Of a DNA stretch of 64,000 nucleotides, positions 1,826-17,217 are shown piece by piece. A program made the position numbers and the translations under genes. The notes under the pieces were generated by a model, which did no database searches, was not told the DNA's origin, and was given only the letters and a program-made list of their open reading frames with translations. How positions within the stretch are numbered: the first letter of the stretch is position 1; every line of letters begins with the position of its first letter. Where the stretch lies: the NCBI GenBank assembly GCA_963832165.1, contig CAWHTE010000005.1, positions 96,001 through 160,000 of the forward strand. Direction: 5' to 3'. The DNA comes from an uncultured delta proteobacterium (GTDB lineage: Bacteria; Myxococcota_A; UBA9160; SMWR01).

Positions 1826-2467
1826 CTACGACTCTGGCGGAGGTATGGCCCCCTGTGCGGCTGTGCTCTCGCCCGGGCCACCCTTGAACACGGCCTTCTC
1901 GAGCGCCTCGAGCCGCCGGATCAGATCGCGGATCACGTCGGGCGACGGTCCTGCACTCGGTGCTGCGGCACTCGCGGGCGCGCCCGGCGGACCCGCACCG
2001 CTTGCGACCTTCGTATAGACGGCGACGCGATCCACGATCTCGTCGAGCTTCGGGATGATGTCGCCCATCGTGCCGCTCTGGATGAAGATGCGCCGTGCGG
2101 CGGCCGCCTCGGCTTCGCTCTTCACATCGAGCGGCAGGCAGTGCACGTCGAGGCTCGCGCCATCGCCGAACTGCGTGAACGCGCCGAAGATCAGATAGTC
2201 GCCGCCGCGCGCCTGGCCCCAGTCGAGCGCCTTCTTGAGCACCGTGGTGGCCGCGCCGGGATCCTCCACGCGTTCCACCTGCACGCGCCCGGTCTGCTCG
2301 AGGCGCGAAGAGATCATGTCGGTGATGCCGCGGCTCACGTAGCCGGGATTCGACGCCGCGGTGTGCACGACGATCGGCAGAATCACGATCCGCGTGCGAT
2401 CGGCCGCCGACGCGCTTCCGCTGAGCAGCAGCGCTCCCATGAGAGCCAGAACCTGCGCGACCCGCAT
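1826..2467 (-). CDS. Exported protein with CsgG/TolB-N-like alpha/beta domain
   Basis: Signal peptide ending SASA; pattern IVILPIVV...GITDMISSRL...DYLIFGAFTQFG...SLDVH resembles CsgG/TolB-N folds; Ala/Pro linker and short coiled-coil tail. Confidence 0.55.
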   Translation of the reverse strand: MRVAQVLALMGALLLSGSASAADRTRIVILPIVVHTAASNPGYVSRGITDMISSRLEQTGRVQVERVEDPGAATTVLKKALDWGQARGGDYLIFGAFTQFGDGASLDVHCLPLDVKSEAEAAAARRIFIQSGTMGDIIPKLDEIVDRVAVYTKVASGAGPPGAPASAAAPSAGPSPDVIRDLIRRLEALEKAVFKGGPGESTAAQGAIPPPES

Positions 2468-2485
2468 CAGGCGCGCGATACTAGC

Positions 2486-4155
2486 TCACTCGGCGTTCGG
2501 CTCGCGGGCGTCGAGCGGCAGACGCACCAGGAACGCCGCCCCGCGCCCCTCGCGGCTCGTCACCTCGATCGTGCCGCGGTGATCGGTCGCGATCCGGTGG
2601 CACACCATCAGGCCGAGGCCCGTGCCGGCGTCGGGGCCCTTCGTGGTGAAGAATGGATCGAAAATCAGCTCGAGGTGCTCGGGCTTGATGCCCGGGCCCC
2701 GTGTCTCGCACCTCGATCTCCACGCCGTTGCCGTCCGGGGCCGGGCCCGTGCGCACGATCACCTCACCCTCGGGCGGCGTGACCGAGAGCGCATTCAGCA
2801 CGAGATTCAGCACCACCTGGTGGATCTGATCGCGCGCTGCGACGATCTTGGGCGTCGCGGACTCCGCGCGCAGGATCAGGCCCACGCGGCCGAGTTCCGC
2901 CTCGCGGTGCAGCAGCGTCACGACTTCGCGCGCCACTTCGTCGGGCCCGAACGTCTCGTACGAGATCCCTCCAGCGCCGGCCTGCCCGAGCCGGCGCATC
3001 GTGCGCAGCAGCTCGCGGATGCGATCCACTTCCTTCACCGTCAGCGCGTGATACTCGCCCCAGAATTCGAGGTCGGCCTCGGCGCGCTTCGCGGGCGCCA
3101 TCGCGAGGAACGTGTTGATCGCCACGAGCGGATTGTTGATCTCGTGCGCGAGACCCGCGGCGAGCATGCCGAGCGATCCGAGCCGGTCGGCCCGCCGGAT
3201 CTGTTCGCGCGAGCGGCGCAGGTCTTCGACGAGGCGCGCGTTCTCCACCGCGATCGACGCCTGATTCGAGAGCCCCTCGATCAGCGTGATGTCGTCGGCA
3301 GTGAAGCGCCGGCCACCGCGGCGGTTGTCGACCGTGATCGCGCCCATCAGGCCGTCCTTGCCGAACAGCGGCGAGACGAGGATCTCGTCGGCCGCGACCT
3401 CCGATAGCCACTGCCGCACCACGTTCGAGTACTCGAGCAGGTGCTCGCCGCGCAGCGTGAGCGACATGCCGTCCTCGAGCCGCGAGACGAAGTCGTGCGC
3501 GTTCTCCACCGTGAACTTGAAGCGCTGCAGGCGCGAGGTCGATCTCGTCGGGCACCGAGGGAAGAACCCACTCGAGGGAGCGGTTCTTCGGGTTGCGCAG
3601 CAGGAGATTCGCGCCGTCGTAGCCGAGATCCCTGCGCATCGTGGCGAGGATCAACGCGAGCAGCCGATCGAGCTCGAGCTCGCGGTTGAGCATTCCCGAC
3701 ACGCGGTTCAGCACCGTGAGCTCGTTCAAGAGCTGCGAGCGCTCGCGATCGAGCGCGTAGGCCTCGATGCCGCGCAGCAGCGTGGCGCGCACGTCCTCGG
3801 GGTTCCACGGCTTCGGGATGAAGCGGTAGATCGACCCGTTGTTGATCGCGTCCTGGAGCGTTGCTGCATCGCCGTAGGCCGTGACCATGATCCGGATCGT
3901 CTTCGGATCGATCTGGGCCGCGCGCGCGAGGAACTCGGTGCCGGTCATGCCGGGCATCCGGTGGTCCGAGATCACCACCGCCACGGGCTGGGTGTTGATG
4001 ATCTCGAGGCCCGCTTCGCCGCTCGTGGCGGTGACGATGGAGAACTCGCGCCGGAACGTGAGCTCGAAGATGCGCAGGTTCTCGGGCTCGTCGTCGACAT
4101 AAAGGATCGGATACTCGCGCGGCTCGCGGAGCATCTCGGGGTTAGGCCGCATCAC
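2486..4155 (-). CDS. REC-GAF-HisKA-HATPase hybrid signalling protein (PhcR-like position); two apparent frameshifts near 3540 and 2692
   Basis: REC (ILYVDDE, VVISDHRMPGMTG, FIPKPW) in ORF 2764..4155. GAF end and H-box (LAHEINNPL) plus N-box in ORF 2481..3509. Removing one G near 2692 restores [32 protein letters not shown], ending in TGA at 2486-2488. Confidence 0.85.
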
Positions 4156-7021
4156 GCCCCTCGCCGTTCGAGCCGGGGTGATCCGGCAGCGGGAAGCGCA
4201 TCACCACGCGGGCGCCTTCGCCGTGGACCGAGCCGATATCGAGCGATCCGCCGTGCTCTTCCATGATCCGCCGGCTGATCGAGAGCCCGAGCCCTGAGCC
4301 CCGGCCGACCTTCGTGGTGACGAACGGCTCGAACAGCCGGTCGCGCACCTCGGGTGCCACGCCCGGACCGTCGTCCCGGATCTCCACGAGCACGGCGCCC
4401 TCCTCGGTGCGGGCCGTCACCCAGACGGATCCGGCCCCGCGCTCGGATTGTTCGAATGACTCGACCGCATTCTTGAGCAAGTTCAGGAAAACCTGGTTCA
4501 GGGCGCGCACATCGCCGCGGATCTGCGGGAGCCCCTCGGGGATATCCGCATGGATCTGGACCCCAGCCGACGTCAGCGTGTGACCCATCAGGCGCAGCGT
4601 CGTGCGCAGTCCGCGCGCCAGGTCGACCGGCCCCCGGTCGCGGGACCCCGGTGCAGCGAAGTCGCGCAGGTCGCCCACGAGCGCCGCCGTGCGGTCGAGC
4701 CCCTCGGTGACGATGTCGGTGAGCTCGGTGAGCGTGGCCGCGCTCTCGTCGAAGCCGAGCTTCGTGCGCAGCGCCTCGAGTGCATCGATCTGGCGGCGCA
4801 TCGCATCGGTGTCGCCCGGGTCGATCGCAGCCACCTGCTCGGCCACCTTGCGCACGTCAGCGACCACCGCGCGCAGCGTGCGGGCCGCGTTCATCGCGAA
4901 GTTCACGGGGTTGTTGATCTCGTGGGCGACGCCGGCCGCGAGTTCACCCACGGCCGCGAGCCGTTCTGCGTGGACGAGCTGAGCGCCGGCCTGCTTGAGC
5001 TCCTCCATCGTGGCCATGAGCTCTTCGTTCGTGGTCTCGAGCAGCGAGTTGCGCACCGCGAGCTCCTGCTGCGCGTGGCGCAGCCGGACGAGGGATCGCA
5101 CGCGTGCGAGCAGCTCGCGCGGATGGAACGGCTTGGTGACGTAGTCGTCCGCGCCGTGCTCGAGCCCCTGGATCTTCATCTCGCGCTCGGCCTTCGAGGT
5201 GACGAGCACCACGGGCACGCTCGCGAGCGCCGGGTCGCGCTTGATCTCCGCGCAAAGCTCGATACCCGTCATCTCGGGCATCATTACGTCGGTGAGCACG
5301 AGGTCGGGCGCATGCGCGCGCGCGGCCTCGAGGCCCTCGCGTCCGTTGCGCGCCACGCGCACGCGGAACTCCTGTCCCACCAGGTGGTGGAGCAGGCGCC
5401 GCATGTCGACGTTGTCCTCCACCAGCAGCACCTCGGGCGTACCGGGCGGATGGTCGGGATAGTTCGGCCGCGTCTTGCGCTTCCACTGCCCTTCCGCGCG
5501 CTCGACGTTCCGCTCGAGCTCCACGTACTTCATCTGTTCCCGCAGATGGCCATCATCGCTGGCATCGCTGTCGGTGCCTTCGCTCGCCTCGCCGTCGGGC
5601 TCGTCCTGGCGGAGCTCCGCTTCCATTCCCGCAATCGCGCTGCGCAGTGCCGGTGAGAGCTCTGCCGCATCGATCGCCTCGGACACCGCGTCTTCTGCCG
5701 CGTCGCTCTCGCCTGCGGGCAGCACCACGTGGATCTGCGCGCCATGTCCGAGCCCGTGGCTCTCCGCCCAGACGCGCCCACCGTGCAGCTCCACGAGCTC
5801 CTTCACGAGCGCGAGCCCGATCCCCGTGCCTTCGTATCGGCGCGTGTTCGAGCCATCGACCTGCGCAAAGCGGTCGAAGATGCGCTCGAGCTGGTTCGGC
5901 GGGATCCCCGCGCCGGTGTCCGCCACGACGATGTGTACACCGCCTTTCCCTTCGTGCACACCGTGCACCCGGATCGCGCCGCCACCGTCGGTGAACTTCA
6001 GCGCGTTGCCGAGCAGATTGACGAGGATCTTCTCGAACGCCTCGGGATCGGCGTGGATCTCGGGCAGCTCCTCGAGCCCCTCCACTTCGAGCCGCACGCC
6101 TTTTCGTTCCGCGAGCGGACGCGCGCCCGAGATGATCCCCTCGCACACCTCCGCGAGCCGCACGGGCCGCCGCCGCACCTGGAGCTGTTGGCTCTCGATC
6201 TTCGCGAGGTCGAGCAGGTTGTTGATCAGCTTGAGCAGCCGAAGCCCGTTGCTCTGCACGGTTTCCAGATAGCTTTGCTGCATCGGGTTGAGCTCGCCGA
6301 ACTCTCCACCCAGCATCGCCTCTACCGGTGCCAGCGTGAGCGTGAGCGGAGTGCGCAGCTCGTGGTGGATGTTCGCCGTGAAGCGCGACTTCGCGGCGTC
6401 GAGCTCTTTCAGCTCGTCGCGCGCGCGCTCGATCTCGCGGCGCTGCAGGAAGTCGGAGAAGCGCATGCGATCCAAAAGAGCGCAGGCGACAACACTCTCT
6501 GCACCCGCCGCAAGTGGAAACGCCAAAGCGAGCAAATAGGCGTGCCAGCTTAGAGCAGCAGACTCAGTAATCGGAAGTGCACCTAACCCCACAACAAGTA
6601 CAGCAACGATTCCGGCCGCTTGCATTGCTGTAAGCGGAAGCAATACGGGCATTCCCAGGAACAGCAGCATCAGGCCCGGCGTGTATTGCCCACCGGCCCC
6701 TCCCACAACCCCAATTACTTCCAGCAGCATCCATCCCGCGCAGAGCACGCCAACGATGCAAGACGCCTTGGGGTATCGGCTTGCTGTAAATGTGGCGATC
6801 GCAATCATTACAAGATCGCAGGCGACTCGTACCCAAAGCATGCGCAGGAACAGTTCTCGAAAGACGAACCAATCCAATGCCATGAACGCCGTGGTAAATG
6901 CGGCGACGATAAGCGCACCGTTCCGCGTCGCTCGCGGCAGTTCCGCTAGCTCAACGTGCGCGCGATATTCGGCGTAGGCGGATCTGGCCTGGCGGTCGAT
7001 GATACCCATCGCCTCCGCCAA
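4142..7021 (-). CDS. Membrane hybrid sensor kinase: multi-TM sensor, HisKA-HATPase, REC, second HisKA-HATPase
   Basis: About 5-6 hydrophobic segments in the first ~185 aa; NIHHELRTPL, NLLGNALKF, DTGAGI, GTGIGL; REC (LLVEDN, DLVLTDVMMP, YVTKPF); second AHEINNP, NLLKNA, DDGPG, GSGLGL. Confidence 0.93.
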   Translation of the reverse strand: MAEAMGIIDRQARSAYAEYRAHVELAELPRATRNGALIVAAFTTAFMALDWFVFRELFLRMLWVRVACDLVMIAIATFTASRYPKASCIVGVLCAGWMLLEVIGVVGGAGGQYTPGLMLLFLGMPVLLPLTAMQAAGIVAVLVVGLGALPITESAALSWHAYLLALAFPLAAGAESVVACALLDRMRFSDFLQRREIERARDELKELDAAKSRFTANIHHELRTPLTLTLAPVEAMLGGEFGELNPMQQSYLETVQSNGLRLLKLINNLLDLAKIESQQLQVRRRPVRLAEVCEGIISGARPLAERKGVRLEVEGLEELPEIHADPEAFEKILVNLLGNALKFTDGGGAIRVHGVHEGKGGVHIVVADTGAGIPPNQLERIFDRFAQVDGSNTRRYEGTGIGLALVKELVELHGGRVWAESHGLGHGAQIHVVLPAGESDAAEDAVSEAIDAAELSPALRSAIAGMEAELRQDEPDGEASEGTDSDASDDGHLREQMKYVELERNVERAEGQWKRKTRPNYPDHPPGTPEVLLVEDNVDMRRLLHHLVGQEFRVRVARNGREGLEAARAHAPDLVLTDVMMPEMTGIELCAEIKRDPALASVPVVLVTSKAEREMKIQGLEHGADDYVTKPFHPRELLARVRSLVRLRHAQQELAVRNSLLETTNEELMATMEELKQAGAQLVHAERLAAVGELAAGVAHEINNPVNFAMNAARTLRAVVADVRKVAEQVAAIDPGDTDAMRRQIDALEALRTKLGFDESAATLTELTDIVTEGLDRTAALVGDLRDFAAPGSRDRGPVDLARGLRTTLRLMGHTLTSAGVQIHADIPEGLPQIRGDVRALNQVFLNLLKNAVESFEQSERGAGSVWVTARTEEGAVLVEIRDDGPGVAPEVRDRLFEPFVTTKVGRGSGLGLSISRRIMEEHGGSLDIGSVHGEGARVVMRFPLPDHPGSNGEGRDAA

Positions 7022-7087
7022 TCGACCAATCGCGACTAATACTTAAGCCACGCTTCTGCGCGTGGCTCGCACGCGCACGGAGCCAGT

Positions 7088-9556
7088 CTACGGCCGGCGT
7101 GCGCTTACGATCACTGCTTGAGGGGGGTCGCCAAACCCTTGCCCCGCCTGGACTTCTACGAATCCCGCGTTCGCGACAGCAAAGCGAAGCTCCGATTCCT
7201 CCCAAAACCGGAAGCGCCCACTCTCCTCAAGATCAAGTAGCCGCGAACCATCGTTCAGAAAGTCACGCACAAGAGAATCAAAGGAGCTATCAACCGCCCT
7301 GCCGAGCAAAGTTCGGGCCTCAGGAGTCGCGTACTCGAGAAGGCCATCGTGGAAAAGCATCGTCGCGTCCGCATCCTGCACCATTGACGATAGAACTACG
7401 CGCCCACCAGGCATGAGAACTCGGTAGATCTCGCGAAGCAGCCGCTCAGGGCTCTCTACGTAGCTGATCAGCAGAGATGCGATTACTGCGTTGATTGACC
7501 CACTGGCGAGCGGAATCGCCATTCCTCTTCGGAGATCTAGGTTGCCAACACATTGCGTCGTCAAAACTTCACATTGCTCTTGTGTTGGATCCCTCCGCGA
7601 CCTAGCGCGAATCAGTGCATCCCGAACGAAATCGACCTCGATCACCTTGGCTCGTTTAGGCCCGAGGCCTCCGCGTAGACCTACGGAGAACTCGCCCGTC
7701 CCGGCTCCGAGATCCGCAACCCGCTGACCTTCTGCAAGCTGAAGCATCCGGACCTGCGCTTCCATGAAGTTTCGATAGGCGGCTGTTGCCGTAAGCAACT
7801 CCATACCTACGATACGACTTCGACCCAGCAGGTAATCCGCCCAGAACGCTCTCACATCAGGCTGCGCCAACGGGATTCTCGCCAGCTCCGCAGCGCGGGC
7901 GGCGGCAACGCGGGTGACTCGAGGCAGAACGCCGCTCTTCCGCTCGCCCAACGCCATCTCGCTGACCTCTTCCGCGATCAACTGAAATGTCGCAAGAGCC
8001 TTGTGCCCACTCCGCAGCTGGTGGCCAGTCGGAACTTCGATAATCCGCCTAGTCTCCGTGGGCCCGCACGACATGATCTCAATCACGCGGTTGAGATCCA
8101 TCCAGGCATCGTGTCGCCCGTGGATCCACGTGATCGGAATCTCGATGTGCGCCATTTCTCTCCGGGCGTCTTCCAGGAAGCCAATTCCGTTCTCTATCGC
8201 GTCCAAGCCCGTGTAGTCCATGTCAGCGACGACACCGGCTAGTTCGTGTCGACCAAATTTCATTCCTTGAAGCAGGCCACTTCCGAAGTCAATCCCACCG
8301 GAAATTGTCCTGAGCGCGGAATGCAAGTCAGCCATTCCGACGATTGAAACCCATCCGGAGACCCTATGATCGCGGGCGAGAGCATGCCTTGCTTCGACCG
8401 CGGCAAGGCTGAAAGTGACAAGGATGATCTTCCTTGGGGCCCGCGCTTGGTCGCTCAACAAGTAATCGACGGTTGCTGAGATATCCCGAGCCGCCTGCGA
8501 GAAGGTAAAGCGGAGATATTCGTCACCGGGCTGACGACAGTCTTGGTCAATGTGGGACTCTCCGCGCCGGTTAGTCCCGTCGAATCGAATTACCCGAATC
8601 GGCTCCCCGAGTCTTCGGAACGACTCCACGAGCGTCATCGCTAAAGGAAGCATCGTTTCCTTGGTGCGCCCCCACGCGGGTGGAATTATCACGCCAACAC
8701 CGTTCGAGTGCGCCCCCCATCTGTTCTCAATCGCACGAATTGACTCGCCTCGCTCGTTCTCGTACTCGACGACGTGCACCCGGTGCCGTCGCCTGTTAAT
8801 CGCGAAGCCCGCTTTCAGAGCAAGTGCGCTAACGCCCGCACGCGCAAGCTGCATCGTTTCGCGAACTGTCGGGCCACGACCGAGAATCTGATCTCGGCGG
8901 TCAACGTTGAGTAGCTCGCTCGTTGGGACGCTGCTTACTGACAGACCAACCTTCAACCATCCGGGCCGAGTGCTATCGGCGGTCCGATGACGGACGCGTC
9001 CAAATGCCGGCTCTCCCTCGTGACCAACTCGGAGCTCGATTTCGAGAGGAAGGCTCTCCGCCAAAGCCTGAGGCATCCGAATCCCAATGCCATGACGTGT
9101 CCGGTCCATCACCTCGACTTCGGACCATCTGCTTGGGGTTCCGCTCTGAATCATTACCCGGCGCGGATCCGCGTGACTCCGTCCGAGATCACGCCGCTCG
9201 GCGCGATAGACGGACCGGGGAATCGTTGCTCGCAGCGTTCGCGCTCCCACTGCGGAGACGGCTGAACATGCGAAGAAATACTGGGTACCGGCAAGCTCGA
9301 GGCTAAAGAAGAGCTGGGAGTTGGCATGTAGGCTGATGTTCGTCACGGCGAGCAACAGCGCGTTCAAATCGACGTGGAGAATCCTCGCTGTTCGGTCAAT
9401 CCCTGCGTTCAGCACACTTCCTTCTTGCGCTGCACGTTCCAGGATCGCCCGCACTTCGGTGGGATTCGAAATAGAATCCCGGTGGAGCGCTCCAAAGGTC
9501 TCGCTCGCAATGCGATCGAGTCTCTTCGTCGTCTCACCGCCTCTATGCGGCGACAT
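7088..9556 (-). CDS. Fusion protein: PilZ-type region + LuxD-like alpha/beta-hydrolase (acyl-ACP thioesterase) + class I SAM methyltransferase
   Basis: PilZ motifs RRDLGR (RxxxR) and DRTRHG (DxS/TxxG). Hydrolase: IRFDGTNRRGES, nucleophile elbow VTFSLAA, GRHDAW, TGHQL. Methyltransferase: VADLGAGTG, IEVDF, IPLASGSINAV, EIYRVLMPGGRVV. Confidence 0.8.
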   Translation of the reverse strand: MSPHRGGETTKRLDRIASETFGALHRDSISNPTEVRAILERAAQEGSVLNAGIDRTARILHVDLNALLLAVTNISLHANSQLFFSLELAGTQYFFACSAVSAVGARTLRATIPRSVYRAERRDLGRSHADPRRVMIQSGTPSRWSEVEVMDRTRHGIGIRMPQALAESLPLEIELRVGHEGEPAFGRVRHRTADSTRPGWLKVGLSVSSVPTSELLNVDRRDQILGRGPTVRETMQLARAGVSALALKAGFAINRRRHRVHVVEYENERGESIRAIENRWGAHSNGVGVIIPPAWGRTKETMLPLAMTLVESFRRLGEPIRVIRFDGTNRRGESHIDQDCRQPGDEYLRFTFSQAARDISATVDYLLSDQARAPRKIILVTFSLAAVEARHALARDHRVSGWVSIVGMADLHSALRTISGGIDFGSGLLQGMKFGRHELAGVVADMDYTGLDAIENGIGFLEDARREMAHIEIPITWIHGRHDAWMDLNRVIEIMSCGPTETRRIIEVPTGHQLRSGHKALATFQLIAEEVSEMALGERKSGVLPRVTRVAAARAAELARIPLAQPDVRAFWADYLLGRSRIVGMELLTATAAYRNFMEAQVRMLQLAEGQRVADLGAGTGEFSVGLRGGLGPKRAKVIEVDFVRDALIRARSRRDPTQEQCEVLTTQCVGNLDLRRGMAIPLASGSINAVIASLLISYVESPERLLREIYRVLMPGGRVVLSSMVQDADATMLFHDGLLEYATPEARTLLGRAVDSSFDSLVRDFLNDGSRLLDLEESGRFRFWEESELRFAVANAGFVEVQAGQGFGDPPQAVIVSARRP

Positions 9557-9699
9557 TCGTTCCTACCGCATCGTCTTGGCGAGAGACTGTCCGGGATCCC
9601 CGTACATGGCGGCCCATATATTCTCACGGCGGGGGGCCGGAAACGGTCTCTTTATACTACGCCCGTCTGAGCTTTCCAAGGCATCGGCGTCGGATCCCG

Positions 9700-12600
9700 C
9701 TAGGGAGCCTCGCGCAGTATCCGCTGCTCGAGGTTCCCCATACCGAGCGCCCTAGCTTGCTGCAGTGCCAGGCTCCAGTACTTCCGCCCGCTGCCCACAC
9801 GGTTCTGATCCAGCATCGAAGCGTTGTCAGCATACGTGTGCGCCAAGGCCGGGCCTGCTCCTGCCGCTCGATTCGCGACGATTGCCCTACGAAAGTGAGC
9901 CTGAGCGGTATTCCATTGACACATCAGGCCGGCTAGTACACCAAGGAATCGGTCGGTTGATCCCCAGCAGAAGCTGCTAAATCCCACGACCGCCATTTGT
10001 CCCGCAAAGCGCTCCCACAGGGAATACAGCTCGCGGACAAGCGCAGGAGACTCGAGCACTCGGCACGCTAGCGTCAGAGATCCTAGCGTCCCGAACCACG
10101 CGTTTCGTGGAAAGCTGCTCAGTGCACCTCTGGCAATAGCCGCCTCCATAACATCGCGTGCTTCATCAAGCTTTCCGAGTTCGCAATAGAGATAACAAAC
10201 ACCAGCCTGCCAGCCCTCTACTCTCGGAAAATCCGATGCGATTGCGACTACTGCGGGTTCAATCTCCTCCAAACCTCCCACATCAATCGCGGCCATAGCA
10301 CGCTGCAAAGCAAAACTGTGAAGCGCGTTCCGATCGTCAACCGCTAATCCCTGCCGTAGGAACTCCTCGCCATGCTCACGTGCCGCTGCATAATTCCCTC
10401 TCATTAGCGCGATAGTTGCCTGTAGCATCCCGACATACCAAGCGGCGCTCGGCCTGCGAGTTCGCTGAATCAAAGCTCCGAATCCACCAATCTCAATATC
10501 AACCTCACGCATCTCGCCAACCTGCCAAAGCGCAGTAATCCGGAGAATCGTCCGGAGGAGCGCCGTAGATCCATCCTCTGTATTAGCCGATGTGGATCGA
10601 CGAATGTGCTCATGCGGTGTTTCAACAGAATACAAGGCCAGGCTGCCTGCAGTCCTTGCGAACGAAACCATCTGCAAGTCTTCTCGCGCCTCAGCTGCGA
10701 CAATCGCTTCTTTTACAAGAGCCTTGAGTCGCTCCCGAGGCTCGTCGGACCAGTGAAGCGCCACAGCAAGTCTCGCAAGTATTCGCGGTCGCTCCCGCGC
10801 GTCGGCTGGAAGCTTTCCGAGCGCACCCTCAAGTAGCCCAACCAAGTCGCGGTCGTAGACCCCCGTCTCAATTGCCAATAGGTCCGGAGCAAACGACAGT
10901 GCAGCTCTAGCGCCGAGGTCAGGTCGCTTGCAGTGCTCCGCCAACCGAGCAGCTTCGATTAACGCGTTGCGTGAACTCTCGCGATTCCCAGCGAACCCGT
11001 ACGCCAAGCCCCGCTCCAAGCACAATTCACAGCGCAGCTCGCTGTCCTCTGGACACAGACGTTCCAAGAGGACGACCGCACGCTCGAGATGAGCCGCAGC
11101 TGAGTCGAATGCCGCCCGCTCAATGTCCCACCGAGCGGCACGTATTAAGTAGCTAATCGCCTTAGCGGCAATCGGAGTCGGATACGCGGCTGCGAAATGG
11201 CGCGCAATCTCAGCACTTAGGGGACCAAGCTCTACTCCAGCCATTTCCTCCATAGCGAGAGCGATGCGCCCGTTGTTCTCAGCGCGCTCCGCCGCCGTGA
11301 GCGACGCGCAGACAGCCTCTCTAACCAAGGCATGCGCGAATCGATAGTGACCGACTTCGTCGTCGTTTACACAAATGCCATGGTCTATTGCGACTTCGAG
11401 ACCGGCAAGAACTCGCGATGCATCCATCGCCAACGCATGCTCCAAGAGACCAGCAGAGAACTCTTTTTCAATCACGGCAGCCATTGCCAACAGACCCTTG
11501 ACGCTGGCGGGCAGCAACTCCGTCTGCCTCATTATTGAATCTCGAACTCCGCGCGGAATTGAGTACTCAAGAGGCTGCGCTGTCGTTAGAGATTCAAGGC
11601 GACCCGCATTCTCAAGTACATTCAGTACTTGCAAGACGAAGAATGGGTTTCCATTAGTCTTCGCGAGAAGGTCTCTCACCGCCTCAGCGCTCGGTTGAGT
11701 CCCCACGCGACGCTCGGTGATGATCGCCACATCGTTCGCACATAGACCCCCGAGCGTGATCAGTTCCGCACCTCGCGACCGGAGAACTGACGACACCATC
11801 CCGACACACTTTTGATAGCTACTTCCATGCGTCCTAAAAGTCCCAAACAGAAGCACGTGAGATCCATTCAACTCTGCTGCGAGATGCTGAAATAACAGCC
11901 TGGAAGCCTGGTCCGCCTCATGCAGATCATCGAGGAAGATCGCGATGGGCCCCAGCGATGAGAGCTTCCTAACGAGGGTCAGAATGCTCTCGAAGAGCCT
12001 ATGACGGGATGCTCGCGCGTCGTCCGTCGGACTACTTGCGGAGGGTGAGACTACTTCTTGCAGTTCGGGAAGAACCCAGGCGACCTCCTCAGCTCCATTG
12101 CTCATCGTGTGCACGATCCATTCTCGAGACTCACCTTCTACGAGCTGACGAAGTACCTGAGTCCACGGCCAAAGAGCCGGCGCTTCATCAGTGCCTACGC
12201 ATCTGGCGGATCCCACGCGGAAACCGCGATCGCTCGCGTGAGTTGCTGCCTGCAATAGGGCGGTCGTCTTTCCAATGCCGGCTTCACCAGTTGCAAGGAT
12301 CGTGCGATAGCCACCCGAAGCAGCATTGCTAAGCGAACGCTCCACAGATTCTAGAAATGACTCGCGTCCGAGGAACGAATGATCATCCTGAGTTCGCGAG
12401 CTTCTCTCTGCACGATCGAGCCGAACCAAAGCCGGTTCGACTTGCGCCACAAACTGCAGGCCATTCCCCCGAACTGTCCGAATGATTTGCTGAGCGTGTC
12501 CGGTGTCTCCAATGGCCCGTCTGACGGCGTGCACTGCAAAGCGAAGCGCCTGCTCGTTTACACGCACCCCCTTCCACACGGTGCGGTGAAGTTCCTCGCG

Positions 12601-12759
12601 CGAGACAACTCGGTTTCTGTTGTCGATCAGGTAGAACAGCAGGTCGAGTGGCCTTGCCTGAAGCTGTACTACACGTCCTCGCCGCAATAACAATCGTTCT
12701 GATCTGGAAAGTTCGTACTCGCCGAATCGAACGACAGCGACGTCCTCAAACGCGTTCAT
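9700..12759 (-). CDS. Transcriptional regulator: OmpR-type winged helix + STAND (AAA_16) ATPase + helical/TPR-like region
   Basis: N-terminal RFGEYEL...LDLLFYLIDNRNRVVSREEL...IIRTVRGNGLQF; Walker A GEAGIGKT; Walker B IFLDDLHEAD; TNGNPFFV; YRFAHALVRE. Start placed at ATG 12759 rather than 12828. Confidence 0.88.
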   Translation of the reverse strand: MNAFEDVAVVRFGEYELSRSERLLLRRGRVVQLQARPLDLLFYLIDNRNRVVSREELHRTVWKGVRVNEQALRFAVHAVRRAIGDTGHAQQIIRTVRGNGLQFVAQVEPALVRLDRAERSSRTQDDHSFLGRESFLESVERSLSNAASGGYRTILATGEAGIGKTTALLQAATHASDRGFRVGSARCVGTDEAPALWPWTQVLRQLVEGESREWIVHTMSNGAEEVAWVLPELQEVVSPSASSPTDDARASRHRLFESILTLVRKLSSLGPIAIFLDDLHEADQASRLLFQHLAAELNGSHVLLFGTFRTHGSSYQKCVGMVSSVLRSRGAELITLGGLCANDVAIITERRVGTQPSAEAVRDLLAKTNGNPFFVLQVLNVLENAGRLESLTTAQPLEYSIPRGVRDSIMRQTELLPASVKGLLAMAAVIEKEFSAGLLEHALAMDASRVLAGLEVAIDHGICVNDDEVGHYRFAHALVREAVCASLTAAERAENNGRIALAMEEMAGVELGPLSAEIARHFAAAYPTPIAAKAISYLIRAARWDIERAAFDSAAAHLERAVVLLERLCPEDSELRCELCLERGLAYGFAGNRESSRNALIEAARLAEHCKRPDLGARAALSFAPDLLAIETGVYDRDLVGLLEGALGKLPADARERPRILARLAVALHWSDEPRERLKALVKEAIVAAEAREDLQMVSFARTAGSLALYSVETPHEHIRRSTSANTEDGSTALLRTILRITALWQVGEMREVDIEIGGFGALIQRTRRPSAAWYVGMLQATIALMRGNYAAAREHGEEFLRQGLAVDDRNALHSFALQRAMAAIDVGGLEEIEPAVVAIASDFPRVEGWQAGVCYLYCELGKLDEARDVMEAAIARGALSSFPRNAWFGTLGSLTLACRVLESPALVRELYSLWERFAGQMAVVGFSSFCWGSTDRFLGVLAGLMCQWNTAQAHFRRAIVANRAAGAGPALAHTYADNASMLDQNRVGSGRKYWSLALQQARALGMGNLEQRILREAP

Positions 12760-12897
12760 GAATTCATTATCCCATGCGAGCCGTTCTTCTAGTTGCCCCG
12801 AGGGGCACGGGGACTTCCGAAACAACAAACTGCTAACGAATCGCCGGAGGCGCCAAGTCTATGCTCCTCGTCACCCCAGAACGCCGAGGACGGCCTA

Positions 12898-14151
12898 ATG
12901 CAGCTCACTGAACGCAGCCGGGTCCTAGTCGCTGACCCCATCAGAGAGAACCGTGGAATGCTCGTCGAGACCCTCTCCTCGTGCGGAATGTCATGCATTG
13001 AAGCTGTGGACGGAGTATCTGCTTGGCGGTGCTTTACGGCAGATAGACCAGACCTCGTCTTGGCAGCCTTGCAGCTTCCTGGTCTAACTGCCCTTGACCT
13101 ACTCGCTCGCATTCGCGACGTCTCGACCACCCCATTCGTCGTTCACGCTCCCGCCGGCGAAATTCCCGCCGCCATCACTGCAATCCGCCGTGGTGCCGCC
13201 GATGTCATTCCCTTCCCTTGTCACGCGGACGAGCTATCCACCCGAATTAAGGCCGCGCTTGCGACTAACCCCGAACGCCGTCGCCGGACAGAAGCACCCG
13301 AATCGTTTGCAGGGCGAAGCCAAGCAACCTCGCGGATCCGAGAGCAAATCAGAGCGCTCGCTGGCTTGCGAATTCCAGTTCTGTTCTGTGGCGAAAAGGG
13401 TACCGGTCGCGACCACGCAGTTCGCTGCCTCGCACAATTGGACGGCGTGGGTGCGAATGATCTATTCAAAGTGTCGCCTGTTACCGGACGCCCCCTAACT
13501 CGCCATGAGGCATCAAAAGCAATCTACATCGATGAGATAGAGCGGCATTCTCGAGTAGACCAAGCCTACTGGTGCGAACGAATCAGCGACTCCGAAAGGG
13601 CCGCACAGGATGCTCCTCGGAGAGTCATCGTTTCAACGAATTCTGATCTAGACAGACTCTCGAGGCGAGACGAGTTCGATCCCAAGCTCGCCGGGATCCT
13701 CCTCCGCTTCGTGGTCAACATTCCGCCGCTTCGCGCTCGCCGTGAGGACCTAATTCCCCTTGTAGAGAGTCTCGGACTTCACGCCTCGCGCCGAATAGGG
13801 CGACCGAATACCAGATTCACTACACCTGCGCTGAAGCTATTGCAGCAACAAACATGGCCGGGGAACGTGTCTCAGCTCGCAGCGCTCATTGAGAAGCTTG
13901 TTGCATTTTCTCCCGACGGCTTGATCACTAGACGCCTCGTCTCGGCCCTGATCGAGGAAGCGCCAACGGGTGTCCCTTCGCTCCGCCGGAATGCGCTACG
14001 CCTTCAGCGCGACGAACTCCTCGCAATCCTCGACCAGACCGGCGGGAACCTCGCAGAGGCGGCTCGACGCATGAATATGAGCCGCGGCGCGGTGATCTAT
14101 CGCGCGCAGAAGTTTGGCCTGCTGGCGAAACGCGTGCGCGCGAACCCCTGA
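12898..14151 (+). CDS. Atypical NtrC-like regulator (pseudo-receiver, degenerate sigma54 AAA+, Fis-type HTH)
   Basis: REC-like N-terminus; GEKGTGRD, YIDEIE, IPPLRARREDL, WPGNVSQL; C-terminal GGNLAEAARRMNMSRGAVIYR. GAGGA RBS precedes ATG 12898. Confidence 0.85.
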   Translation: MQLTERSRVLVADPIRENRGMLVETLSSCGMSCIEAVDGVSAWRCFTADRPDLVLAALQLPGLTALDLLARIRDVSTTPFVVHAPAGEIPAAITAIRRGAADVIPFPCHADELSTRIKAALATNPERRRRTEAPESFAGRSQATSRIREQIRALAGLRIPVLFCGEKGTGRDHAVRCLAQLDGVGANDLFKVSPVTGRPLTRHEASKAIYIDEIERHSRVDQAYWCERISDSERAAQDAPRRVIVSTNSDLDRLSRRDEFDPKLAGILLRFVVNIPPLRARREDLIPLVESLGLHASRRIGRPNTRFTTPALKLLQQQTWPGNVSQLAALIEKLVAFSPDGLITRRLVSALIEEAPTGVPSLRRNALRLQRDELLAILDQTGGNLAEAARRMNMSRGAVIYRAQKFGLLAKRVRANP

Positions 14152-14152
14152 A

Positions 14153-15160
14153 TCAAGCCCCTGCGAGAGGGACCTTTCGCACCTTCACACCCGCCTCTCG
14201 CAGTAGATCGAGTGACGTCTGACCTAGCGGGTAGTCGGCGTTGTACACAACTTCGGTGAGGCCGGAATTGATGATCATCTTGGTGCAGATCAGGCAGGGG
14301 CTGAAGGTGGTGTAGAGGGTCCCGCCCTTCACCAGGACCCCGTGATAGGCGGCCTGGGTGATGGCGTTCTCCTCGCCGTGCGAGCACAAGCACTCATCGA
14401 GGCGGGTTCCGCCTTCCGCGAAGCTATTGCAGCGCGGACAGCCGCCCTCGTTGCAGTTGAGCGTGCCGCGCGGGGTTCCGTTGTAGCCCGTGGAGATGAT
14501 GCGGCGGTCGCGCGTGATCACGGCGGCCACCTTGCGCTTCACGCAGTTGCTGCGCGACGCCACCACGCGCGCAATGGCCATGAAGTATTCGTCCCAGCTA
14601 GGTCGTTCAAAAAAAAAGGAGCGCTCCAGCTGCGCCTGCACCTGGGCGTGTAGCTCAGCGAGCGTGCCGTCGTTACTCAGCGTGGTGTCGGCGAGCGCAT
14701 GCACGGCGAGGAGCTGTTGCGCGGCGGGGTCGGCGCCGCCGAGCTCGCGGCCCTCGAGCTCGCGCAGCTGTTCGAGCGTCTGCGGATCGCCGCCGCGCCC
14801 GCGCGCGCGCATGCGTGCTAGGCGAACGTTTTCGTCGGCGTCCACCCACCAGAGCTGGAAGCGACTCGTGCGCGCGCGCAGCACCTCCACCTCGGCAGGG
14901 TGGCGCACGGAATCGATCACGTAGTTGCGGTCGGGCAGCAGCTGTTCGGCGAGCAGCGTTGCCAGGCCACCGGGCCCGCGCGCCTGCCGGATCGCATTAC
15001 CGGCATCGATCATGCGCTCGCGCGTCTCTTCCTGGCCTTGGCGCCGCAGCTCGTCACGGATCACATCGGACAGCGACAGCGCGTAGAAGCTGCGCGACTG
15101 AAGGAAGGCGAGCACCTCACCCTTGCCGGCGCCGTTGCGGCCCGAGAGCCCGATGATCAT
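14153..15160 (-). CDS. P-loop kinase-like domain fused to dCMP/deoxycytidylate deaminase
   Basis: N-terminal IIGLSGRNGAGKGE, VIDSVRHPAEV; C-terminal RPSWDEYFM, TGYNGTP, SHGEENAI, SPCLICTKMI (Zn-binding H-x-E / PCxxC). Confidence 0.92.
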   Translation of the reverse strand: MIIGLSGRNGAGKGEVLAFLQSRSFYALSLSDVIRDELRRQGQEETRERMIDAGNAIRQARGPGGLATLLAEQLLPDRNYVIDSVRHPAEVEVLRARTSRFQLWWVDADENVRLARMRARGRGGDPQTLEQLRELEGRELGGADPAAQQLLAVHALADTTLSNDGTLAELHAQVQAQLERSFFFERPSWDEYFMAIARVVASRSNCVKRKVAAVITRDRRIISTGYNGTPRGTLNCNEGGCPRCNSFAEGGTRLDECLCSHGEENAITQAAYHGVLVKGGTLYTTFSPCLICTKMIINSGLTEVVYNADYPLGQTSLDLLREAGVKVRKVPLAGA

Positions 15161-15282: not shown

Positions 15283-17217
15283 GTGACCGTGACCATGACC
15301 TGTGACCGGATCTGTCACACCCGTCCCGCACGATGGAAGCTGCCCCGGTCCCGGGGAGTGAGCATCGTGGTCGACGGAAGCGGAAGCGCGCTGAGACGAG
15401 CGCGCTCGCGAGTGCCGACGTTCGAGACGGTCGCGCGATCGCGGGTCGCACCGCGGCTGCTCGGGATCGAGCCGCGCCGGTCTCCGCCGCCCCGGTCCGA
15501 GGATCTGGATGCGGAGCTCTACCAGCTAGCGCACTCGGCCGGTCCGCTCCGGCGCGCTCTCGCGCGGGTGGCCGGGAGATTGGTGGCCGTGCGCGGCTGG
15601 GAGCGGCTCGGCTTTGCGCGGCTCGCGGATTACGCGGTCGAACGTGCCGGAATCTCGCCGCGCGAGCTGCGAGACCTCGCCCGCGTCGATCGTGCATTCG
15701 AGTCTCTGCCGAGGCTCGAACAGGCCTTCCTCGCGGGTGAGATTGGCTGGACCGAGCTGCGCCTGCTGTGTCGCGTGGCGCAGCCCGACGACGAACGCGA
15801 GTGGCTCGCGCGCGCCTCGCGCCTCACCGCGTCAGCACTCGCACGCGAGGTGCGCCAGGTGGATCGACGCGCGCGAGAAGCCTCCGCGGGGATCGGCGCA
15901 CCCGAGGAAGACGATGAGCGCAGCGTTGGCGTGATCGTTCGCTGCACACCGTCGGTGCGCGCGCGCTGGTGGCACGCGCGCCAGGTCGCCAATCGCGTCG
16001 CGGGGCACACGCTCTCGGCCGGCGCGTTCCTGGAAGCGGTGACGGCCGAGGTGATCTCCGCGGTCGGGTTCCAGGGCGAGTCATCCAACGACTCCAAATC
16101 GGCGCCGCCGGCGATGAGCCACGAAGACTTCGAGCTGTCACGCGCAGACGCCAAACGAGTGCCACCCCAGGCGCCGCTCCAGCCCGGCCCACCTCCCCCA
16201 TTCATCACCTCACTCACGCACGACATCGAGAACGCGGATCCCTTCGAACTCGATGCGCGCCTGCGCCGCGCCGTCCGCCGTGAAACGCGCCGCCTCGCTC
16301 ATCTGGCCGCCCGGCTCGAGCAGGCCGTCGTACTCGGGCTCCCGCGTGCCATGGGATTCGCAAGCCTCGACATCTACGCCGAAGAGCGCCTGGGCATCGC
16401 CGCAAGCCGCGCGCGCGCATTGTTGAGGGTCTCGCGCGCGGCTTCCGAATGCCCGCCGCTTCGCAAGGCCTTCGCCACGGGTCGGCTCTCGTGGGTGCAG
16501 GCGCATGCGCTCGTTCCGCTTCTATTCGAGACCGCCACCCGCCGCTATCGCGAAGCCTGGGTTCTTCACGCCGAGCGCGTGAGCGTGCGGCGCCTGTCGG
16601 ACGACATCGAGCGCGCACTCGGCACCGGAGTCTTCGAGCCTCCGTCTCTCGCGCCGCCGCCTTGTCCGTCGGACCCCGTCGATCTCCAAATCGGTGCCAT
16701 CACACACCCGCCCTCGGATCGAGAGCACCCCGTCCCCCAGACCGAGCGGGTGCGCTTGTTCGTCGCCGCCTCGCTCGAGGTGGCCCACCTGTTCCGCGCG
16801 GCACTCGCCATCGTGCAGCGGAGGCTCGAGCACCTCCGGCGACGCCCCGCCTCCCAAAGCGAGGCACTCGAAGCGATGCTCGCGCACGCGGTCGCCACCT
16901 GGGTCGCGCAGGATCCCCACGATCACGCGCTGCGCGACCACCGTGTCTTCGAGCGAGACGGCTGGCGCTGCACCGTTCCGGGCTGCTCGTCCTACCGCAA
17001 CCTCCACGGACACCACATCGTGTTCCGCTCCCAGGGTGGTACCAACGCACTCAGCAACCTGACCACGCTCTGCTCGTGGCACCACCAGCGCGGTGTTCAC
17101 GGCGGCGTCATCTCCTGCTCGGGGCGGGCTCCCCATGCGTTGCATTTCGCGCTCCTGCTCCGCCCTAACCACCTGCCGCTGCTCTGTTATGGCCCGGGGG
17201 AGGTGCGCATGGGCTGA
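15283..17217 (+). CDS. DUF222-like domain HNH endonuclease (start uncertain)
   Basis: C-terminal VFERDGWRCTVPGC...LHGHHIVFRSQGGTNALSNLTTLCSWHH; two copies of a GFA-x-L-x2-YA-x-ER-x-GI helical domain. The true start may be ATG 15333 with a frameshift near 15490. Confidence 0.8.
   Translation: MTVTMTCDRICHTRPARWKLPRSRGVSIVVDGSGSALRRARSRVPTFETVARSRVAPRLLGIEPRRSPPPRSEDLDAELYQLAHSAGPLRRALARVAGRLVAVRGWERLGFARLADYAVERAGISPRELRDLARVDRAFESLPRLEQAFLAGEIGWTELRLLCRVAQPDDEREWLARASRLTASALAREVRQVDRRAREASAGIGAPEEDDERSVGVIVRCTPSVRARWWHARQVANRVAGHTLSAGAFLEAVTAEVISAVGFQGESSNDSKSAPPAMSHEDFELSRADAKRVPPQAPLQPGPPPPFITSLTHDIENADPFELDARLRRAVRRETRRLAHLAARLEQAVVLGLPRAMGFASLDIYAEERLGIAASRARALLRVSRAASECPPLRKAFATGRLSWVQAHALVPLLFETATRRYREAWVLHAERVSVRRLSDDIERALGTGVFEPPSLAPPPCPSDPVDLQIGAITHPPSDREHPVPQTERVRLFVAASLEVAHLFRAALAIVQRRLEHLRRRPASQSEALEAMLAHAVATWVAQDPHDHALRDHRVFERDGWRCTVPGCSSYRNLHGHHIVFRSQGGTNALSNLTTLCSWHHQRGVHGGVISCSGRAPHALHFALLLRPNHLPLLCYGPGEVRMG

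Follow-up and report, generated by a model that had tools for sequence, protein, structure and literature searches.

The window analysed here, a 64,000-nucleotide stretch from the genome of an uncultured delta proteobacterium (contig CAWHTE010000005.1, positions 96,001 to 160,000), encodes on its minus strand a candidate signal synthase of 822 amino acids (aa; 7088..9556) that is predicted to consist of a PilZN-PilZ pair, a LuxD-like hydrolase and a class I S-adenosylmethionine (SAM) methyltransferase. Next to it on the same strand lies the gene for its candidate receptor, a 959-aa membrane hybrid kinase (4142..7021) made up of a membrane sensor, HisKA-HATPase, REC and a second HisKA-HATPase. 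We propose, with a probability of about 60%, that the two form a Phc-like lipid signalling pair, in which a different, self-supplying synthase, likely controlled by cyclic di-GMP (c-di-GMP), is swapped together with the sensor as a cassette. The proposal rests on the three folds and the conserved residues of the enzyme, on how regularly the kinase accompanies it, on a sensor homologous to that of a PhcS-like protein, on the alternation with PhcB-family genes and on a shared history of enzyme and sensor.

An earlier note on this DNA, made from the letters alone, had placed the open reading frame (ORF) and all of its motifs where we find them. At E ≤ 0.001 we obtained 312 homologous proteins, and in a 111-row alignment built among the 120 listed, R121, R122, R126, G156, S383, D483, H512, D615, G617, G619 and D642 are each found in 111/111 rows, as is Asp or Asn at position 151. 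The PilZ residues are encoded at 9191-9193 (R122), 9179-9181 (R126), 9104-9106 (D151) and 9089-9091 (G156), the putative catalytic residues at 8408-8410 (S383), 8108-8110 (D483) and 8021-8023 (H512), and the DLGAGTG motif begins at D615 (7712-7714). An AlphaFold2 (AF2) model of the enzyme has a predicted local distance difference test score of 89.1 and a predicted template modelling score of 0.89. Sequence and model together support a three-part protein, with the hydrolase, PilZ and methyltransferase calls upheld. Hydrolase and methyltransferase are fused across the whole family, distant members of which have an extra N-terminal PilZ domain and often a 110-aa insert within the methyltransferase.

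Among 301 genomes of the phylum, 34 encode the enzyme, its own included, and at least two of the listed homologs are labelled as Myxococcota or Deltaproteobacteria proteins from metagenome-assembled genomes. With E ≤ 1e-30, a profile of the catalytic part matched 557 clusters (clustered at 50% identity), for which details come from the best 150 of the 557. Since a single-protein scan of named genomes gave one locus only, the range outside the phylum is taken from Atlas cluster labels, which include forms of 555-563 aa in Verrucomicrobiota and Omnitrophota and of 874-910 aa in Nitrospirota. The hydrolase-methyltransferase pair was not found in any plasmid record searched, and a search for shorter forms, whose 37 matches lie mostly on short contigs, did not demonstrate a stand-alone hydrolase.

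The N-terminal region is predicted to form two barrels. The first, a YcgR-N-like PilZN barrel (aa ~15-112; 9221..9514, minus strand), is indicated by the AF2 model and by Foldseek matches to MrkH, YcgR, PP4397 and a YcgR-N domain; the second, a PilZ barrel with R122xxxR126 and D151xTxxG156 (aa 118-208; 8933..9205, minus strand), by motif, conservation and model. Modelled separately from the rest of the protein, the N-terminus still resembles these three proteins, and we read it as a PilZN-PilZ pair of the YcgR/MrkH type and thus as a predicted candidate c-di-GMP receptor. The earlier note had seen both motifs and assigned them to one PilZ domain; the motifs stand, and the single domain gives way to the pair. 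The profile match to PP4397 is weak (E 0.043). The full RxxxR..[DN]x[ST]xxG motif falls within the first 230 aa in 104 of the 111 homolog rows, more often than expected by chance: of 8,388 six-frame ORFs of at least 300 aa in the genome, 400 contain a similar pattern at any position. In the window enzyme the second motif has drifted to DRTRHG from the family's DxSxxG, with Thr replacing Ser, and Pfam PilZ gives no match to this N-terminus while matching 61 of 85 homologous ones. The genome holds 11 GGDEF matches over the cut-off.

With YcgR, MrkH and PP4397 the window protein shares the two-barrel module with RxxxR and D/NxSxxG, but those proteins act on the flagellar motor or on DNA, whereas here the module is joined to enzymes. 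PixB of Myxococcus xanthus, in which two PilZ domains are combined with a GNAT acetyltransferase and which binds c-di-GMP in vitro (PMC8316039), is likewise a myxobacterial PilZ-enzyme fusion and a precedent for gating by the second messenger. Its catalytic domain is a different one, and the likeness is one of described architecture, not of sequence. PlpA illustrates that PilZ motifs are no guarantee of binding (PMC8316039).

The middle domain (aa 258-540; 7937..8785, minus strand) is a LuxD-like alpha/beta hydrolase with a predicted triad of S383, D483 and H512 and a non-GxSxG elbow, TFSLA. LuxD, the myristoyl-acyl carrier protein thioesterase of Vibrio harveyi (PDB 1THT), is the top Foldseek match, ranks first in a VIA-align comparison with 48,161 chains (Z 29.6, root-mean-square deviation 2.6, 274 residues; next 25.9) and leads the hydrolase-only profile search (E 4.7e-9; next 3.1e-6). 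The non-GxSxG elbow and the acid motif align with those of LuxD; the printed profile alignment matches the Ser and Asp motifs and stops just short of the His. These comparisons bear out the earlier LuxD-like assignment, no other hydrolase family being closer. Pfam Acyl_transf_2 (PF02273) by itself did not confirm it, scoring 13.9 bits on the window enzyme, under the cut-off of 20.3; it matches 5 of 29 family members at E ≤ 0.05, is passed by P0259 with 28.6 bits and is found in 100% of the members of look-alike Atlas clusters.

Unlike LuxD, the window hydrolase is fused to PilZ and methyltransferase domains and its locus is without luxCE and luxAB. The statement in the earlier note that no luxCABE genes are present holds for the locus, since neither the fetched loci nor the first 22 kb of the window gave a LuxC/LuxE-like hit, but not for the genome, which has 4 LuxC-like and 2 LuxE-like matches unlinked to the enzyme. 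They include genes at C7:710367-712624, C4:260975-263010 and C11:726084-727292, adjacent to one another on C7 and C4. No link between such genes and the enzyme was found at the fetched loci. The C-terminal domain (aa 565-822; 7091..7864, minus strand), with DLGAGTG and D642, is predicted to be a class I SAM methyltransferase, as had been called before, and falls outside the PhcB family.

The kinase has the layout of PhcS fused to PhcR, with a REC-HisKA-HATPase module within the sensor-kinase polypeptide, and is followed by a gene for a REC-GAF-histidine kinase (2481..4155, minus strand), likely the next relay step. We fetched the flanks of 32 of the 33 other enzyme-positive genomes of the phylum. 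At 30 of these 32 loci the enzyme is followed, directly or behind an MMPL transporter, by a kinase of ~850-950 aa with a multi-pass membrane domain; of the two exceptions, one ends with its contig after the MMPL gene and one (L063) is without a kinase. A sensor profile made from the genome loci only was then run on 80 metagenome loci and found the sensor in 50, which is 50 of the 52 informative ones: directly after the enzyme in 27, after a gap in 22 and elsewhere in 1, with 2 loci lacking it, 9 cut off behind an MMPL gene and 19 of insufficient length. Across 193 genomes of the order, which are kin and hence no independent trials, the enzyme occurs in 79, the sensor in 95 and both in 76. The kinase is thus near-obligately linked to the enzyme. 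In 7 of 14 distant loci (4 by scan, 3 via clustering), a gene of GGDEF, EAL or HD type lies behind the kinase.

It is the adjacent PhcS-type receptor, missed by the earlier note in its stand-alone framing of the enzyme, that leads us to read the enzyme in terms of signalling instead of bulk lipid. If the kinase were a mere neighbour, the enzyme could be a metabolic one that makes bulk fatty-acid methyl esters (FAME) or supplies fatty acid to the unlinked LuxC/LuxE-like proteins, whose genes the genome does contain; the kinase is missing at 1 of the 32 genome loci and at 1-2 of the 52 informative metagenome loci. We consider this very improbable, given that one sensor family is linked to the enzyme across distant families, that the fetched loci lack LuxC/LuxE-like genes and that sensor and enzyme share their histories (see below).

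Two further observations concern the kinases. At L058:1642-8713 (G260), three tandem sensor-family matches lie downstream of a single enzyme gene, and at L085, L087, L089, L091, L093 and L099 an 850-aa hybrid kinase is followed by a REC-kinase of 375-396 aa, which resembles Leptospira LvrA/LvrB in sizes and layout but comes with a membrane sensor and an upstream synthase gene. LvrA was also the top NCBIfam match of the window kinase (331 versus a cut-off of 1200); it was rejected as a model because it is described as being without membrane segments (PMC5863495).

The sensor domain of the window kinase (6422..7021, minus strand) is multi-pass, MASE8-like and related by profile and hhalign homology to that of PhcS. 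As references we used two proteins of Paraburkholderia graminis, standing in for PhcS and PhcB of Ralstonia. On the P. graminis plasmid (L111), a PhcB-family gene (468 aa) is followed by a kinase and then by two response regulators. The PhcB-like protein has Arg at position 22, a residue mutated (R22C) in PhcB of GMI1000 and conserved in Paraburkholderia homologs (PMC6989110), and the kinase has His at 233, the His in OE1-1 PhcS being at 230 (PMC11960443); operon layout, R22 and His233 are the reasons for taking the two as PhcB- and PhcS-like. The profile of enzyme-linked sensors scored 100.7 bits on the PhcS-like protein (WP_114158448.1), compared with 9.0 for the top unrelated score in a background of 27,994 ORFs, and hhalign gave 99%. 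Pfam MASE8 matches 4 of 27 sensors. On the PhcB-family profile (A4), the P. graminis PhcB-like protein scores 290 bits versus 9.0 for the window enzyme, of which only the Rossmann core aligns, and membership of the enzyme in the PhcB family was rejected. From the sensor score, the low enzyme score and the Rossmann-only alignment, sequence comparison identifies the receptor as PhcS-related and the enzyme as a non-homologous occupant of the PhcB slot.

The sensor family, found in 134 of the 301 genomes, is wider than the enzyme. Among 40 sister kinases with high sensor scores that are not beside the enzyme, 31 have a PhcB-family gene (PilZ-type plus methyltransferase) at their locus, a count weakened by the choice of these kinases from the top of the hit list and not at random, and by the fact that 23 of the 31 genes themselves built the profile used for counting, 8 being found with it. 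Many of the PhcB-family homologs carry the Joint Genome Institute (JGI) name '3-hydroxypalmitic acid methyl ester biosynthesis protein'. Conversely, none of the 31 enzyme loci with the sensor and none of the 80 metagenome loci has a PhcB-family gene. A quick tree was built of 72 kinases, with long branches that make deep placements unsure; in it, the clade of the window kinase (Shimodaira-Hasegawa-like approximate likelihood ratio test 100; 22 rows) contains 17 enzyme-linked, 3 PhcB-linked and 2 contig-end kinases. Of the 19 genomes of the order with the sensor and not the enzyme, 7 have a PhcB-type gene; three genomes hold both synthase types. At the orthologous site of a genome of the same family (G345), the left flank and the genes for REC-GAF kinase and hybrid kinase are as in the window, and next come an MMPL gene, a cyclopropane synthase gene and a PhcB-type gene.

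Other occupants of this slot were seen at a few loci. L087:6898-10300 and L093:6665-9886 hold a third set, a multi-PilZ protein of 807-819 aa, whose C-terminal domain looks like an acyltransferase and has no family hit, together with a separate 265-aa methyltransferase. Polyketide synthase (PKS) genes directly adjoin PhcS-type sensor kinases at L105:9582-13601 and L106:6634-13359, and a plasmid PKS of Enterobacter ludwigii (L113) ends in a PhcB-type methyltransferase domain. On a Pseudanabaena plasmid (L112:4962-7581), the gene for a PilZ-less PhcB-type methyltransferase faces, in convergent orientation, those of a response regulator and a sensor kinase of the related kind, beside a Tn3 transposase. 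The N-terminus of the P. graminis PhcB-like protein (L111:6437-7843) can be aligned in A4 to the barrel that PhcB-family proteins of myxobacteria form from PilZ, and Pfam PilZ matches occur among the latter; it is without the arginine motif, and the conserved R22 falls there. Cyclopropane fatty-acid synthase genes lie beside both synthase types (L044, L071, L072, L073, L209, L210, L218, L223 and, in Paraburkholderia, L111), and a desaturase, a P450 and an AurF-type oxygenase at single loci may point to tailoring of the acyl chain.

Composition and identity suggest that synthase and sensor travel together. The enzyme and the sensor domain lie within a block of 58% GC (6480..14150), compared with a genome mean of 70%, the left end of which falls approximately at the sensor/core boundary inside the kinase gene; 58% over ~6500-14100 places it in the lowest 0.2% of 7.5-kb windows in the genome. 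The GC content of third codon positions (GC3) has the foreign value of 0.63 in both enzyme and sensor domain, whereas the kinase core is host-like at 0.87-0.88, with a step near kinase codon 180 that is repeated in L043, L047 and several same-family loci. At other loci, such as that of G345, sensor and core have equal GC3 (0.95, 0.96), which means that the step is not explained by membrane codons alone. Relative to the window, the sensor of the same-genus genome G349 is 38% identical and the core 72-75%, and in G351 the values are 58% and 69-73%. Over 17 loci of the order, sensor identity correlates with that of the methyltransferase at rho 0.81 versus 0.37 with its own core, and with one clade collapsed (10 loci) the values are 0.65 and -0.18. 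In a further genome, G183, the two genes flanking the slot are adjacent and the slot is empty. Enzyme and sensor domain thus likely move jointly, as a cassette, onto a resident kinase core, and this would produce signal dialects that differ between strains; to this the window contributes a breakpoint within the kinase gene, allele differences within a genus, a PhcB replacement within a family and an empty site.

The conserved flanks of the slot are a TolB_N-like gene on the left (1826..2467, minus strand) and a kinase/dCMP deaminase gene on the right (14153..15160, minus strand). The low-GC block also contains a regulator with a winged helix and a STAND ATPase (9700..12828, minus strand), present at only some related loci, and a gene for REC, a degenerate sigma-54 activator and a Fis helix-turn-helix (12793..14151, plus strand). 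A 644-aa HNH-domain protein is encoded just beyond the block (15283-17217). No informative repeats were seen at the block ends, and two DNA sequencing runs, which cover the region thinly, were uninformative on cassette exchange and on frameshifts.

An MMPL transporter gene is present at 16 of the 32 genome loci and at 38 of the 80 metagenome loci. Such MMPL/HAE3 transporters at about half of the loci, together with genes that some loci have for a cyclopropane synthase, a desaturase, a P450 or an AurF-type enzyme, would fit an enzyme making an envelope or surface lipid exported by MMPL, with a kinase that monitors its own membrane and no signal between cells. We regard this as improbable, since half of the loci, the window included, keep the kinase without a transporter, and since the exchange of enzyme and sensor onto a resident core fits the pattern in Ralstonia, where PhcB and PhcS group by signal type and PhcR and PhcQ by phylotype (PMC8578825).

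Several observations weigh against the proposal of a Phc-like pair exchanged as a cassette. Hydrolase and LuxD are no more than 16-17% identical, and the next structural matches, at Z 23-26, are feruloyl esterases and monoacylglycerol lipases. The methyltransferase, besides not being a PhcB relative, passes no NCBIfam cut-off (BioC, 30.5 versus 184.95 bits; all are far below). Among the 40 sister loci, the sensor is accompanied by PKS genes at 2, by a PilZ-acyltransferase-like gene and a separate methyltransferase at 2 and by no evident partner at 2, and the same sensor is found in a diguanylate cyclase structure of the P. aeruginosa type (8WCN). In the window itself the MMPL gene is absent, and the gene of the REC-GAF kinase, compared with a 566-aa same-genus ortholog, is shifted in frame twice, near 3530 and near 2700. 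As for the cassette, the GC3 of the enzyme is clearly below that of the distal core in only 5 of 29 loci, membrane sensors are generally more variable than kinase cores, and physical linkage or joint transfer alone can mimic a shared history or co-evolution.

With a methyltransferase that is outside the PhcB family and below every NCBIfam cut-off, methylation of a carboxyl group is read from context; the missing match to a carboxyl-methyltransferase model (BioC, Mtf2 or JHAMT types) lowers membership, not activity. The methyl ester product put forward in the earlier note gains from the position of the enzyme in the slot of PhcB-family methyl-ester synthases, beside the same kind of sensor. The same synthase-receptor pair might also use another chemistry: transfer of the acyl group to another acceptor, ester hydrolysis (a make-and-break switched by c-di-GMP) or methylation at a non-carboxyl position. 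LuxD being an acyl transferase that moves acyl groups from acyl carrier protein (ACP) or coenzyme A (CoA) onto Ser114 (PMC6279958), the generic nature of the nearest methyltransferase profiles (ArsM, UbiE, BioC), the further synthase types in the same slot and the esterases directly below LuxD in the structural ranking would all agree with this. We nevertheless find it unlikely, because the commonest alternative partner of the sensor, even in the clade of the window kinase, is a PhcB-family methyl-ester synthase and because hydrolase and methyltransferase are fused throughout the family.

For the Phc-like pair we infer every chemical step, as well as export, ligand binding and the phosphorelay, as follows. 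S383 would accept an acyl chain from ACP or CoA and free the acid, as LuxD does via Ser114, and the methyltransferase domain would methylate the freed acid. The PilZ pair would exert c-di-GMP control, with PixB as precedent and PlpA as warning. The product would exit by diffusion or through the MMPL transporter and be sensed by the membrane kinase, which would relay to the REC-GAF kinase; in distant relatives, the relay may reach a c-di-GMP turnover protein and so close a feedback loop.

Compared with the Phc system (phcBSRQ) of Ralstonia, Cupriavidus and Paraburkholderia, the locus is alike in that the gene for a SAM methyltransferase immediately precedes that of a membrane kinase whose sensor is homologous, that, by layout, a REC-plus-kinase module lies downstream, and that synthase and sensor vary together while downstream parts track the host (for Phc, PMC8578825). 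It differs in that its synthase is no PhcB homolog and includes a LuxD-like hydrolase of its own as well as a PilZN-PilZ module that is intact, that sensor kinase and REC-kinase are one polypeptide and that many of the loci have an MMPL transporter. Phc signalling has been described as specific to Ralstonia and related bacteria (PMC8578825). The open-access literature searched yielded no phcB homologs in myxobacteria among the matches listed, no link between PhcB and PilZ or c-di-GMP in the passages available, and no description of an architecture combining LuxD-like, methyltransferase and PilZ domains, in agreement with the earlier note, to which no characterised example was known.

In the pherotype cassettes of agr and comQXP, the signal-making gene and the sensing part of the receptor are exchanged together, with a breakpoint inside the kinase gene. 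Those signals are peptides of Gram-positive bacteria, and we claim no homology. The two predicted steps of the enzyme, release from ACP and SAM-dependent methylation, are those of a FAME route engineered in E. coli from the thioesterase BTE and DmJHAMT (PMC4823748), which uses two foreign enzymes where the window has one natural polypeptide. Such a natural thioesterase-methyltransferase fusion could serve one-step methyl-ester production, although a signal synthase may have low flux.

Tentatively, and with less than even confidence, we extend the proposal to a widespread new family of lipid quorum sensing in Myxococcota-type bacteria. One PhcS-type receptor would be combined with interchangeable PilZ-fused synthases (thioesterase-methyltransferase, PhcB-type, acyltransferase plus methyltransferase, or PKS), synthase and sensor would be swapped through a breakpoint inside the kinase gene, c-di-GMP would gate at the enzyme, and the PhcB N-terminus would be a degenerate PilZ remnant. 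In the order studied, 95 of 193 genomes have a PhcS-related receptor and 79 have the synthase of the other family, its usual companion; expression of just two genes could therefore put a putative lipid signal of an uncultured group to the test. If true, c-di-GMP control of an autoinducer synthase and a pherotype-like exchange of lipid synthase and sensor would be of interest to the quorum-sensing field.

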